This document shows, one piece after another, positions 10,193-26,624 of a stretch of DNA of 64,000 nucleotides. The translations under genes and the position numbers were made by a program. The number at the start of each line of letters is the position of its first letter. Within the stretch, counting starts at the first letter, position 1. The DNA is from Candidatus Vogelbacteria bacterium (GTDB taxonomy: Bacteria; Patescibacteriota; Minisyncoccia; Phycocordibacterales; XYD1-FULL-46-19): assembly GCA_903864935.1 (NCBI GenBank), contig CAIPHT010000006.1, forward strand, positions 37,129-101,128, given 5' to 3'. The notes beneath the pieces are model-generated. The model did no database searches. It was not told the origin of the DNA and saw only the letters and a program-made list of their open reading frames with translations.

Positions 10193-10236
10193 TCCCGCCA
10201 GACCTTAAGTGAGCCCAAGGTCTGGCGGGTTTTTTG
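10193..10236 (+). terminator. Intrinsic terminator with AAGTGAGCCC loop
   Basis: cccgccagaccttaagtgagcccaaggtctggcggg followed by a T-run. Confidence 0.8.
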
Positions 10237-13636: not shown

Positions 13637-13729
13637 ATTTGACGAAAAGAAATTAAGAGAGTTTACTTAAATCAGACAGCGAGGTGTTCTCGCGCAAAAG
13701 AAAAGGGCTCAAAAAGGGAGGAAAAACCC

Positions 13730-13966
13730 ATGAGCAACGATGATAACTTTACCCCGCCGTTCATCCCGTTCGGGGAAACAAATTCGGCTGACCCAAAAGG
13801 GGAGACCGATATCCTCAGACCCGGCAGTGTATTTGGCCCTCCGGGGTCAACAATCGGCCAGCTTCAAGCTGACAGGTTCCAGCGGATTCTCGGTGGAGAT
13901 CTTTCCCGAGAAGAATTAAAGGGAACGGACATCGAGAGATTCCGGAGGGCGAAGCATGGATTGTGA
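13730..13966 (+). CDS. Small hypothetical protein, cassette 1
   Basis: TTGACG promoter, SD GGGAGG, terminator at 13983-14023. Confidence 0.65.
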   Translation: MSNDDNFTPPFIPFGETNSADPKGETDILRPGSVFGPPGSTIGQLQADRFQRILGGDLSREELKGTDIERFRRAKHGL

Positions 13967-13982
13967 TGCTTTGTCTTTCCCG

Positions 13983-14023
13983 GCCCCCGACACGCACCAG
14001 CGTTGTCGGGGGCAGTTTTGTTT
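13983..14023 (+). terminator. Duplicated terminator, copy 1
   Basis: gcccccgacacgcaccagcgttgtcgggggcagttttgttt; 40/41 identical to 14502-14542. Confidence 0.85.
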
Positions 14024-14112
14024 GACTATTTTCATTACTAAGCGTTTAATCAATTTAGAAGCGAGGTGTTCTCGCGAAACAAAAAAGCTCAAACAAGGGA
14101 GGAAAACAACCC

Positions 14113-14484
14113 ATGAGCAATAGTATGAAAGTAGTTACGTTCGGAAGGAGTATCCTTTCCGGCGTCATCTTTTGCGAGATAGGAGGAACAGTTGCTTTCG
14201 CCAAAAAAGCGGGCCCCCAACCTAAGGAGGGAGAAACCTGGGAGGTAATACCTCACCGGAACGGGGATGACGGAACTTACTTCCTCCTTGAACTCCTTAA
14301 GAAAATTGAGGAGGGCCCTAAGTCCCCCTCTGTCGAAGAGATCCTTGGGACCATCAACTTCGACGGCAATGGCCCCGGTCCCGAAGGGCCACCTGAACTG
14401 CCGGAGGACTTCGACGCCGGTGGCGTTATCGAACCGAGTGACCGCCCCTGGGATGGTGGAGTTCACCGACGCTTACCAATCTGA
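14113..14484 (+). CDS. Small hypothetical protein, cassette 2
   Basis: Same leader, SD and terminator as cassette 1. Confidence 0.65.
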   Translation: MSNSMKVVTFGRSILSGVIFCEIGGTVAFAKKAGPQPKEGETWEVIPHRNGDDGTYFLLELLKKIEEGPKSPSVEEILGTINFDGNGPGPEGPPELPEDFDAGGVIEPSDRPWDGGVHRRLPI

Positions 14485-14501
14485 ACCCGGTTTCTTTCGT
14501 T

Positions 14502-14542
14502 GCCCCCGACACGCATCAGCGTTGTCGGGGGCAGTTTTGTTT
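14502..14542 (+). terminator. Duplicated terminator, copy 2
   Basis: gcccccgacacgcatcagcgttgtcgggggcagttttgttt. Confidence 0.85.
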
Positions 14543-24901: not shown

Positions 24902-25315
24902 ATGGCAACTACTACCACAACCAAAGAAAGATATGTCGAGGCAATCGGCCGTCGCAAGACGGCAACCGCCAGAGTCCGTCTCACCAAGGCGAGCAAGGAC
25001 AGCGTCGTTGTTAACAACAAGACCTTAGACGCCTACTTCCCAACCATTGAGATGCGTGAGCGTGTTAAGAAGGCTCTGGCTAAGATTGGCGAACACGGTG
25101 CCTTTGCTATCTCCGCTCAGATTACTGGTGGGGGAGTAAGCGCCCATACCGATGCCATGATTATGGGTCTTGGACGTGCCATCATCAAGATCAAGCCTGA
25201 GATCAAACCTGAGATCAAGAAAGAAAAGATGTTAACCCGTGATGCCCGCGAGAAAGAACGCCGCAAGTTCGGCCTCAAGAAGGCTCGCAAGAGTCCTCAG
25301 TGGAGCAAGCGTTAG
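24902..25315 (+). CDS. rpsI: 30S ribosomal protein S9
   Basis: GRRKTATARV, KKARKSPQWSKR. Confidence 0.97.
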   Translation: MATTTTTKERYVEAIGRRKTATARVRLTKASKDSVVVNNKTLDAYFPTIEMRERVKKALAKIGEHGAFAISAQITGGGVSAHTDAMIMGLGRAIIKIKPEIKPEIKKEKMLTRDAREKERRKFGLKKARKSPQWSKR

Positions 25316-25416
25316 TCTCAAATCCTACCAATCAGCCCAGTTGACAAACTGGGCTGATTTAGTGTTCAATAGAAAAAGAAAATACACTCGTGCCAAAGGC
25401 ACAGGAAAGGAAGAAT

Positions 25417-25557
25417 ATGAGCTGCATAGATCAAGTCGGTATTGTTGTCTTTGCTGCGGGAGTGGCCTTGGTTGTCTTTTCCATGTATAGACTCATGGCA
25501 GAGGCCCTGAGTTCAACCGAAAAAGACAAGGAGCCCTTTGGGATTGAATGGTTTTGA
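25417..25557 (+). CDS. Small single-TM peptide, 46 aa (not in ORF track)
   Basis: MSCIDQVGIVVFAAGVALVVFSMYRLMAEALSSTEKDKEPFGIEWF. TTGACA at about 25341, SD GAAAGGA, terminator at 25573-25610. Confidence 0.6.
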   Translation: MSCIDQVGIVVFAAGVALVVFSMYRLMAEALSSTEKDKEPFGIEWF

Positions 25558-25643
25558 CCTACCGATAACTACACCCGGCGCGCCCCAAGCGCGCCGGGTG
25601 GTTTCTTTTTATTTTTCTTAATTTATGCCATAGTAAAACTACA

Positions 25644-25868
25644 CAGCTTAAGGGCTCACTTGCCACAAGTTCTAGGACAGAAACTTAATCTTGTGCAAAG
25701 GAGGAGAAGACGGAGGGAAGACCTCTGAGATGAAAAAGGTCTTACATTGGGCAAGACGGTAGGTATGACAGATGGGAAGACTGCGGTTGTTCCCCGCACC
25801 CCTGTCACTGGCAAGCTGAATGGGCCGAGCTGGATAGGGGTGTCACAATAGTGGCATCCCGCCTTTTT
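25644..25868 (+). ncRNA. Candidate structured non-coding RNA with terminator
   Basis: The 5' and 3' ends pair and enclose three hairpins; terminator at 25837-25868; no plausible ORF. Confidence 0.5.
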
Positions 25869-25898
25869 ATTTAAACTTATCCCCATTTTTGTATACTA

Positions 25899-25925
25899 TG
25901 CGAGATTGGATATCGCACAATAAGG
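25899..25925. repeat. REP-like palindrome family E, upstream of RAYT
   Basis: tgcgagattggatatcgcacaataagg; copies at 26104-26126, 26634-26662, 30882-30912, variant at 49453-49480. Confidence 0.9.
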
Positions 25926-25949
25926 GTTTTTATGATAATATAATGACCA

Positions 25950-26624
25950 ATGAGGGAGAAGCCCACGGAAGACTACATTTATCACATTTTTAATCGCGGA
26001 GTAGACAAGCGAGAAATTTTTTCTGATGACAGTGATCGTCAACGTTTTTTGGCCTGTCTTTATCATTTTAATGACACAGCTCAAGTGAGAAATATCGATC
26101 GCGTGTGCGATATCCAATCTCGCACAAATGACGACCGGGATAAATTAGTGGAGATACTAGCCTTTACCCTGATGCCTAACCACTTCCATCTCTTAGTAAA
26201 ACCTCTGATTGAAGACGGTGTTTCTGAATTTATGAAAAAAATTGGTATTGGCTACACTCATTACTTTAATATAAAAAACGAACGATCAGGAAGTCTCTTT
26301 CAAGGTAAATATAAATTTGTAAGGATAGAAGACGATGAGCAGCTAAACTATATACCTTATTACATCCACTTTAATCCAGCCGAACTCGTTGATTCGGGAT
26401 GGAAAGAAAAAAAAGTTCAGGATAGTCAAAAGGTTTTTGATTTTTTAAAATCTTATAGATGGTCAAGTCTTCGAGATTATCTCGGCCAAGACAATTTCTC
26501 TCAAATTATAGACAAAGGGGTCCTGACAGACTACCTAGGGAGCCCCGAAGAATTTGAGAAGGAAATCTCTGCTTGGCTCAAAGAAATGGGCTCAATAGAC
26601 CATACAAATCTGTGGATAGAGTAG
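25950..26624 (+). mobile_element. REP-associated tyrosine transposase (RAYT, IS200/IS605 Y1 HUH superfamily)
   Basis: YHIFNRGVDKREIF, LMPNHFHLL (HUH), GSLFQGKY, YIHFNP, YRWSS; flanked by palindromes. Confidence 0.92.

Follow-up and report, generated by a model that had tools for sequence, protein, structure and literature searches.

RNA-guided targeting of REP sequences is known for IS110/IS621, and according to the account given in PMC11208160 the guides of the IS110 bridge RNA sit in loops. According to PMC3479197, Y1/HUH transposases read DNA hairpins directly. A further class of relevance here, the accessory small RNA genes encoded by mobile genetic elements or prophages, is that set out in bioRxiv 10.64898/2026.05.13.724894. 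The locus described below resembles the IS110/IS621 bridge RNA (PMC11208160) and the ISPpu9 small RNAs Asr9 and Ssr9 (PMC8450116), in that a structured non-coding RNA of approximately 180-190 nt is predicted upstream of a transposase-type gene. Its resemblance to IS621, which is reported in PMC11208160 to target REP elements, goes one step further, in that palindromic repeats of the genome are complementary to part of the RNA. The first-pass annotation had accordingly suggested a transposase-associated RNA that might guide or regulate targeting, with a 6S-like RNA or a protein-sponge RNA as fallbacks. Our own reading, which we hold tentatively, is that the module is a 267-bp, single-copy, strain-specific non-coding insertion that may well be a stand-alone accessory small RNA gene unrelated to the neighboring RAYT.

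The window, by which we mean the whole 64,000-nucleotide stretch of DNA analyzed here, covers positions 37129-101128 of contig C6 in a genome of 825 kb (20 contigs, estimated completeness 98.8%; designated G000). The genes rpsK, rpsD, rpoA, rplQ, and rpsI lie upstream of the locus, and rpsI ends at 25315. On the 3' side of rpsI there follow a small ORF, a terminator, the module, the RAYT gene, and then grpE and dnaK. The small ORF (25417-25557, plus strand) reads as a hydrophobic, membrane-type protein of 46 aa and forms a cassette separate from the RNA. When it is compared with a contig from run X6 that is 93% alike, 8 of the 12 differences listed fall at third codon positions, and codon reading shows three of the other 4 to be I>V or A>V changes. 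Judged by this substitution pattern, the 46-aa ORF is apparently a real gene. It has no Pfam match, none of 30 other loci has a relative of it downstream of rpsI, and its use as an anchor for metagenome contigs produced 596 pattern matches, none of which was confirmed. The intrinsic terminator of the small ORF (25572-25610, plus strand) consists of a 12-pair stem at 25572-25600 followed by GTTTCTTTTT, and this T tract constitutes the left border of the module. Beyond the module, a genus-conserved RAYT upstream block (25878-25949, plus strand) contains TATCCCCA, TATACT, and a palindrome at 25899-25919. The same block also precedes the RAYT orthologues of five genomes of the genus (G008, G007, G004, G002, and G003). 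The gene for the RAYT-like Y1 transposase (25950-26624, plus strand; 224 aa; Pfam Y1_Tnp, E 5.9e-9) is bracketed by copies of the palindrome TGCGAGATTGGATATCGCACA, and its start codon lies 82 nt downstream of the module.

The insertion module itself (25611-25877, plus strand) is composed of an AT-rich leader, an RNA body, and a terminator. The body is enclosed by a closing helix that is found in both the minimum free energy (MFE) and the centroid folds. Its 5' arm (25644-25665, plus strand) contains GGGCTCACTT at 25652-25661, where the first-pass annotation had placed it, and its 3' arm (25809-25832, plus strand) is interrupted by a 5-nt internal loop at 25816-25820. The claim that this helix has three parts is borne out, with CAGCUU/GAGCUG, GGCUCA/UGGGCC, and CUUGCCA/UGGCAAG paired in the MFE and centroid folds and having pair probabilities of 0.78-1.0. 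The dedicated terminator that had been claimed is also present (25837-25872, plus strand). Its 10-pair stem (25837-25860) begins 4 nt past the end of the closing helix, carries an AAUA loop, and runs into the T tract GCCTTTTTAT at the 3' end of the conserved unit. The interior of the body is another matter. Three inner hairpins had been proposed, and the one at 25766-25807 (plus strand) is robust, being found in the MFE fold, the centroid fold, and the earlier model, with a free energy of -15.9 kcal/mol when folded alone. The best fold has different pairings where those at 25664-25695 and 25718-25743 were proposed, and the full fold model of the first-pass annotation, at -51.3 kcal/mol, is 12 kcal/mol worse than the MFE of -63.3 kcal/mol. 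The predicted inner structure is ambiguous, with competing folds. The motif AAGAC does occur four times as claimed (25707, 25718, 25753, and 25777), but this carries no significance, as 6.55% of 2,000 shuffles reach at least four copies of some 5-mer. Two of the copies belong to AAAGGAGGAGAAGACGGAGGGAAGACC, a purine-rich stretch resembling a Shine-Dalgarno (SD) sequence (25696-25722, plus strand) that is predicted to be partly unpaired in the ensemble.

We compared these features with several chance expectations. The closing duplex, formed by arms of 22 nt and 24 nt, has a free energy of -24.5 kcal/mol, and only 7 of 18,232 equally spaced segment pairs from both strands of the window are as strong. 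The fold that includes the terminator yields z = -2.99, with 2 of 200 shuffles as good, and the fold of the 189-nt body yields z = -2.08, with 5 of 200 shuffles as good. Against a GC-adjusted background, 12% of 3,192 genomic windows of 189 nt fold as well as the body does. The closing helix is therefore the only feature of the fold that is clearly beyond chance, and the stability of the fold as a whole is modest, ordinary for a hairpin-rich genome. The two strands differ, with the plus strand folding at -81.8 kcal/mol and the minus strand at -66.1 kcal/mol, a difference of 15.7 kcal/mol in favor of the plus strand. The GC content of the module is 51.9%, compared to 43.9 ± 7.2% for non-ORF windows, 13.5% of which have a GC content as high.

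The module is present as a single copy in its own genome. A contig from run X5 (peat metagenome) matches positions 25494-25610 with 2 differences and then jumps to RAYT-upstream sequence, its continuation agreeing in 29 of 30 letters with the block that precedes the RAYT in G008. Since this contig joins 25610 to the RAYT-upstream block, a near relative has the small-ORF cassette without 25611-25877. The corresponding slots in the same genus lack the module as well. Four genomes (G008, G007, G004, and G002) have rpsI, a gap of 124-145 nt, a RAYT orthologue that is 69-76% identical, and grpE. Nothing but a terminator and the conserved block, comprising TATCCCCA, the palindrome, and AATAAGGGTTTT, lies in that gap. 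The RAYT of G003 lies 944 nt downstream of rpsI, is 80% identical to that of G000, and has the same type of palindrome. G006 has an inverted RAYT copy that is 51% identical, G005 passes from the rpsI side straight to grpE, and the locus of G001 ends at a contig edge. Both the small ORF and the RNA are absent from all 8 same-genus genomes (G001-G008).

Searches farther afield gave a similar result. BLAST with the module detected no relative in 60 relatives, 42 other genomes of the family, 400 genomes of the order, and 400 genomes of the phylum, approximately 900 genomes in all. The matches it returned are only 21-34 nt in length, which is chance level, the best being 25 nt in G030; that match coincides with the beginning of a small ORF that is unrelated and read in a different frame, and we rejected it as a relative. 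A covariance model built from the single sequence (R1) had no hit in 40 relatives at E <= 1, and blastn of the module against phage and plasmid collections found none. None of the exact patterns had a match, neither the three searched in viral contigs nor the two searched in genome contigs. An 18-mer searched in metagenome contigs gave 3 matches, all of them chance matches inside coding DNA.

The sole relative found is a 151-nt contig from freshwater run X7 of another study (lake metagenome), which represents the 3' half of the module. It covers 25744-25872 and is approximately 92% alike, with 10 differences and a 1-nt insertion. Directly past the T tract of the terminator the two sequences become unlike, and the downstream DNA of the X7 contig is unrelated. 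Because the match ends after the T tract, the conserved unit takes in the terminator, and in that sample it does not lie beside the RAYT block. In a second X7 contig, the RAYT-upstream block is preceded by a different terminator, and the two contigs may come from different organisms. Of the five X7 changes listed, three lie in the internal loop of the closing helix (25816-25820), one breaks a pair of that helix (25813), and one breaks a terminator pair, unless these are compensated elsewhere in the sequence. The first-pass annotation had proposed that homologues be collected for an analysis of covariation. No other relative was found by BLAST or the covariance model, and the alignment for this purpose comes to one partial homologue of approximately 92% identity, limited to the 3' half.

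In G003, the same slot holds a different gene cassette followed by a non-coding module of approximately 205 nt, located upstream of the RAYT (L010:660-902, minus strand). This module likewise has an element in front of it (TGtTATACT), a closing helix around a multibranched core, and a terminator of its own. Its fold has z = -3.68, and 0 of 200 shuffles are as good. No relatives of the G003 module were found in 60 genomes. The bodies of the G003 and G000 modules are not similar to one another (alignment score of 13, compared to null means of 13.5-15.3), and RNAalifold finds no fold common to them. A semi-global alignment signal that had seemed to relate the two modules came with the flanks and vanished for the bodies alone, so homology was rejected. 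The stretch from the rpsI-side terminators to the RAYT block is a slot that collects unrelated structured cassettes, each with its own terminator. Elsewhere in the window, G000 has species-specific small-gene cassettes at 13678-14541, which share no signals with the module. An Rfam search of the same-genus loci and the other RAYT loci returned only a tRNA and sub-threshold noise.

With regard to transcription, a possible weak extended -10 element, TGcCATAGT, can be read by eye at 25626-25634 (plus strand) and would place the start at approximately 25641-25644. A promoter scan upstream of the module found no sigma-70-type site. Of 17 occurrences of the variant TGNCATAGT, 2 lie in non-ORF DNA, which is barely an enrichment, whereas TGNTATAAT (34 of 103) and TGNTATACT (9 of 25) are enriched approximately five-fold, and for this reason we consider the match at 25626-25634 to be weak. 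The 7 sequencing runs listed as containing the sequence include no RNA run, and the contigs compared here are all of DNA. With regard to translation, the module contains no plus-strand ORF of at least 50 aa, and a 76-aa minus-strand ORF that lies over it has no Pfam match. An SD-like GGAGGG is found 11 nt before an ATG, and the ORF that this ATG opens is only 10 codons in length (25730-25762). The X7 variant has its 1-nt insertion after 25819, and by codon reading its A25813>T change introduces a stop into a 28-aa plus-strand ORF. Taken together, the insertion and the new stop argue that the 3' half is probably non-coding. We also predicted RNA duplexes between the module and the small-ORF mRNA, the RAYT leader, and the grpE leader, for which 22, 110, and 179 of 200 shuffles, respectively, are as good. 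Since these duplexes are no better than those of shuffles, there is no sign of a type I antitoxin or of a cis-target relation.

Since the first-pass annotation had linked the RNA to the transposase, we tested for this linkage at orthologous and paralogous RAYT loci. Orthologues of the RAYT at this locus are 69-80% identical in five same-genus genomes, with the inverted 51% copy in a sixth, and these 6 of the 8 same-genus genomes have the rpsI-RAYT locus without the RNA. G000 has seven Y1_Tnp paralogues, at least six of which are each bracketed by a private palindrome, and the RNA is absent beside all 6 of the other RAYT paralogues. Upstream of the paralogue located on contig C18 there is another non-coding stretch, which is rich in hairpins (z = -3.99) but differs from the module. 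The X7 relative does not lie beside a RAYT, and the X5 contig has the RAYT-upstream block without the module. Given that the relatives of the RAYT lack the RNA and that the relative of the RNA is unlinked to a RAYT, the idea of a transposase guide or regulator fails. Among the papers listed by our literature search on RAYTs and REPINs in connection with small or guide RNAs, none ties an RNA to a RAYT.

The 10-mer fares no better as a targeting sequence. Its counterpart, the loop motif AAGTGAGCCC, does occur in 35 copies in G000, compared to 1.19 expected from composition, and 30 of these form hairpin loops on several different stems, with the other 5 outside hairpins. Hairpins with this loop are also found in all 8 same-genus genomes, each of which lacks the RNA, at 3-20 copies per genome, G000 having the most in the genus. 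Beyond the genus, the motif occurs once in one other genus and is absent from 31 further genomes. The presence of the loop hairpins in 8 of 8 genomes without the RNA indicates that this hairpin family thrives independently of it. Within the predicted fold, the 10-mer is buried in the closing helix, and at 9 of its 10 positions the probability of being unpaired is at most 0.06. The chance that a given 267-nt stretch contains a copy of the 10-mer by composition is approximately 4e-4, a figure that was calculated post hoc, and the match may have arisen by chance or be left over from a repeat.

Turning to known RNA classes, the Rfam scan that the first-pass annotation had proposed matched no known family, either for the whole window at the gathering threshold or for 25400-26000 (601 bases) at E <= 10. 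Neither 6S RNA (RF00013) nor SRP RNA (RF00169 / RF01854) has a match anywhere in the genome. RNase P RNA was found in the genome at 97.7 bits, indicating that Rfam models work on this genome. The genome also lacks Ffh and FtsY (PF02978, PF00448), and SRP RNA is therefore not expected in it; our literature search found no statement that CPR bacteria lack SRP. An IS110-type recombinase (PF01548) is not encoded in the genome. As for the two fallbacks, a 6S-like RNA is contradicted by the lack of any 6S match at E <= 10 and of any conservation, and a protein sponge has lost the obvious partner of GGA-rich RNAs, as CsrA (PF02599) is absent from the genome.

These observations can be weighed against the explanations that have to be considered. 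That the module specifies a RAYT-associated guide or regulator, with GGGCUCACUU pairing with the AAGUGAGCCC loops that hairpin repeats in the genome carry, would accord with an exact 10-mer complement of a loop present in 35 copies, with the proximity of the module to the RAYT start codon (82 nt), with the rank of G000 as the genome with the most loop copies (30, compared to 3-20), and with the RNA-guided REP targeting that PMC11208160 describes for another transposase class, IS110/IS621. We nevertheless consider it highly improbable in view of the 6 of 8 orthologue loci and 6 of 6 paralogues without the RNA, the uncoupling of the module from the RAYT-upstream region in X5 and X7, and the loop hairpins of 8 of 8 genomes that lack the RNA. 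Moreover, the 10-mer is paired instead of being exposed in a loop, the one X7 change listed for the helix (25813) affects the base that pairs with the last base of the 10-mer, and the enzymes of this class, in the account of PMC3479197, read DNA hairpins directly. We hold out just as little prospect for the idea that the RNA acts in trans and that its 5' arm, after opening or processing of the closing helix, would pair with the AAGUGAGCCC loops of the approximately 30 REPIN-like hairpins, many of which lie inside mRNAs and terminators. The explanation to which we give the least credence is that of a divergent housekeeping RNA, such as 6S or SRP RNA, missed by the Rfam models in a CPR lineage. 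The size (approximately 190 nt) and the pairing of the 5' end with the 3' end do recall 6S RNA, and neither 6S nor SRP RNA was detected in the genome. Against this, no Rfam match appears in the 601 bases even at E <= 10, BLAST does not find the sequence in the 8 same-genus genomes or in 52 other relatives, nor does the covariance model find it in 40 relatives, the near strain seen in X5 does without it, SRP RNA is not expected in a genome without Ffh and FtsY, and the predicted structure is multibranched instead of a rod with a central bubble. We consider it very unlikely that one of the short plus-strand frames encodes a small protein, be it as a plain gene or as part of a dual-function RNA. 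The SD-like GGAGGG before the ATG at 25730 would fit such a gene, as would an open frame of approximately 46 codons (25734-25874) to which a slip of 1 nt in the A5 run downstream of this ATG would give access. That frame, however, offers its first start codon only at 25848, close to its 3' end, and it crosses the terminator, so that its stop codon would fall past the end of the transcript. The X7 variant has a 1-nt insertion within the frame, and the long minus-strand ORF has no Pfam match.

Two further explanations place the module at the level of DNA. According to one, which we regard as unlikely, it is a non-autonomous mobile element (a MITE, or a PATE/REPIN-like derivative) and the closing helix represents terminal inverted repeats. 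The significant imperfect inverted repeat of 22 and 24 nt around a 143-nt core, the presence/absence polymorphism seen with X5, the second genomic context in X7, and the abundance of palindromic mobile repeats in a genome with 7 Y1 transposase genes are all consistent with this. Such an element would hardly be expected to be single-copy, to lack a target-site duplication flanking its repeats, and to contain no copy of the RAYT-flanking palindrome. The borders of the indel (25611 and 25877) and of the X7 unit (to 25872) lie 33-45 nt beyond the repeats and include the terminator, and one G-U pair, together with the strand asymmetry of 15.7 kcal/mol, favors a helix at the level of RNA. A more serious contender, doubtful but by no means negligible, is inert inserted DNA that specifies no functional RNA, either debris of recombination or a small-gene cassette that has decayed or is very young. 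Its hairpins and terminator would then be mere remnants. The module is an orphan in a single copy without a clear promoter, its fold energy is ordinary against the genomic background, and its GGAGGG and ATG opening a 10-codon ORF are what a truncated small gene would leave. In addition, species-specific small-gene cassettes exist elsewhere in the genome (13678-14541), and the rpsI-RAYT slot is variable across the genus. Inert DNA accounts poorly, however, for a closing helix that is far above chance and sits exactly between leader and terminator, for a unit that together with its terminator is approximately 92% identical in a different context in X7, and for an unrelated gene-like module with z = -3.68 in the same slot of G003. 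Because of its architecture, its strand asymmetry, the non-coding character of its variation, and the terminator-bounded extent of the conserved unit, a small accessory RNA gene is the reading of the module that we consider most likely.

If the module is such an accessory RNA gene, transcription would start near 25641-25644 from the weak extended -10-like element, at the first base of the closing helix, and would stop at the U tract at approximately 25868, yielding an RNA of approximately 225 nt. It would owe its stability to the paired ends and the terminator hairpin. It could act in trans through exposed purine-rich stretches and through a loop and a bulge that contain GAAGA, possibly by titrating a protein or a pyrimidine-rich RNA. 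Modules of this kind may insert behind terminators, in an intergenic hot spot that tolerates them, and may be turned over quickly.

An accessory, fast-turnover cassette with a predicted RNA is thus our best reading of the module. To our knowledge, no small RNA has been characterized in CPR bacteria, and this RNA, if expressed, would be among the first candidate regulatory small RNAs in an ultra-small bacterium of this group. The occurrence of unrelated modules in the same slot in two species suggests that in very small genomes small RNA genes arise, are exchanged, and disappear rapidly. Were the 5' arm to pair with the loops after all, a strain-specific RNA would control or guide a genome-wide hairpin family, adding an RNA-guided layer to the Y1/RAYT system. 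Given that there is no set of homologues, that the guide idea fails the linkage test, and that the RNA is a prediction, the value of the locus would seem to lie mainly in its being a catalogued case and a negative result on a transposase guide.

The comparison with known systems leads to the same assessment. Unlike IS110, the neighbor of the module is a Y1/HUH RAYT and not a DEDD/serine recombinase (PF01548/PF02371), and unlike the IS110 bridge RNA, the module has its 10-mer in a helix instead of an internal loop and shows no linkage across orthologues or paralogues. With 6S RNA (RF00013) it shares a similar length and 5' and 3' ends that are paired in a long, interrupted closing stem, whereas its core is multibranched, without a central bubble and terminal stem, and it is not conserved within the genus. 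The locus is REPtron-like in the sense in which PMC3479197 introduces REP/REPIN and RAYT combinations, and one arm of the helix has the REPIN-like loop motif reversed. Unlike a REPIN, the module is single-copy, far longer, and without the RAYT-flanking palindrome, and its unit includes a terminator. It differs from the accessory small RNA genes in having no clear promoter and in residing in a genome without a CsrA-type partner. Like them, it has no protein product and no homologues beyond close relatives, it is present or absent at the level of the strain, and it forms a self-contained, intergenic unit made up of a structured body and a Rho-independent terminator. Overall, the module is a fairly ordinary orphan of the strain-specific, stand-alone kind of small RNA cassette.

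Neither the source genome, G000, nor 60 relatives of its order show any sign of the SRP pathway in the sequence searches made here. When all of G000, the completeness of which is 98.8%, was searched with Pfam, neither PF00448 (the Ffh/FtsY GTPase) nor PF02978 (the Ffh M domain) was found. No match to SRP RNA was obtained in this genome even at E ≤ 10, and RF00169 was detected in 0 of 41 genomes of the order. A six-frame scan for the motifs DTAGR and GxGKTT...DTAG likewise returned no occurrence within any G000 ORF. Across the 61 genomes of the order, PF00448 yields only partial matches of 30-80 residues, which are at the level of the P-loop. Our literature search found no paper reporting the absence of SRP.

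RNase P RNA is located at positions 4626-5087 of contig C1 of G000, with a score of 97.7 bits, which is slightly below the gathering score of 100 bits. Given that the match is 462 nt in length and the model has 367 positions, this score and length suggest that the RNase P RNA of G000 carries lineage-specific insertions.

The hairpins that carry the 10-nt loop AAGTGAGCCC form a family in which, throughout G000, the loop is constant and the surrounding stems vary. At least five stem types are represented, including terminator-like CCCGCCAGACCTC stems, and some of the hairpins have their arms in swapped order. G000 contains 30 copies, compared to 3-20 in each of eight genomes of the same genus. 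Within the window, the loop occurs at 10207, 34250, 34307 (minus strand), and 34619.

The slot between rpsI and the RAYT gene includes an unannotated 46-aa ORF of the single-helix membrane type (25417-25557). Purifying selection seems to act on it, since 8 of the 12 listed differences from a metagenome contig that is 93% alike fall at third codon positions. It belongs to no Pfam family, and the scans that we ran revealed no relatives. In the same-genus genome G003, the slot upstream of the RAYT orthologue holds an orphan non-coding module of approximately 205 nt that is unrelated to the G000 module. It lies on the minus strand (660-902 of locus extract L010) behind a TGtTATACT element; its multibranch core is enclosed by a closing helix, it ends in its own terminator, and its fold z is -3.68.

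Seven Y1_Tnp/RAYT-like paralogues are present in the 825-kb G000 genome: the window copy (25950-26624), three loci on C17, and one copy each at C7:106639-107313, C15:16553-17227, and C18:408-1067. At least six of the seven are flanked on both sides by a private palindrome, each having its own type. On C18, two long hairpins make up a GC-rich stretch of approximately 150 nt (165-330 of locus extract L048; z = -3.99; no Rfam match), which separates the RAYT paralogue of that contig from a gene for a small protein rich in lysine and alanine. In the upstream regions of several RAYT genes, among them the window copy (25878-25886) and C17 loci, the palindrome is preceded by TTATCC(C/A)CA, which resembles the DnaA-box consensus.
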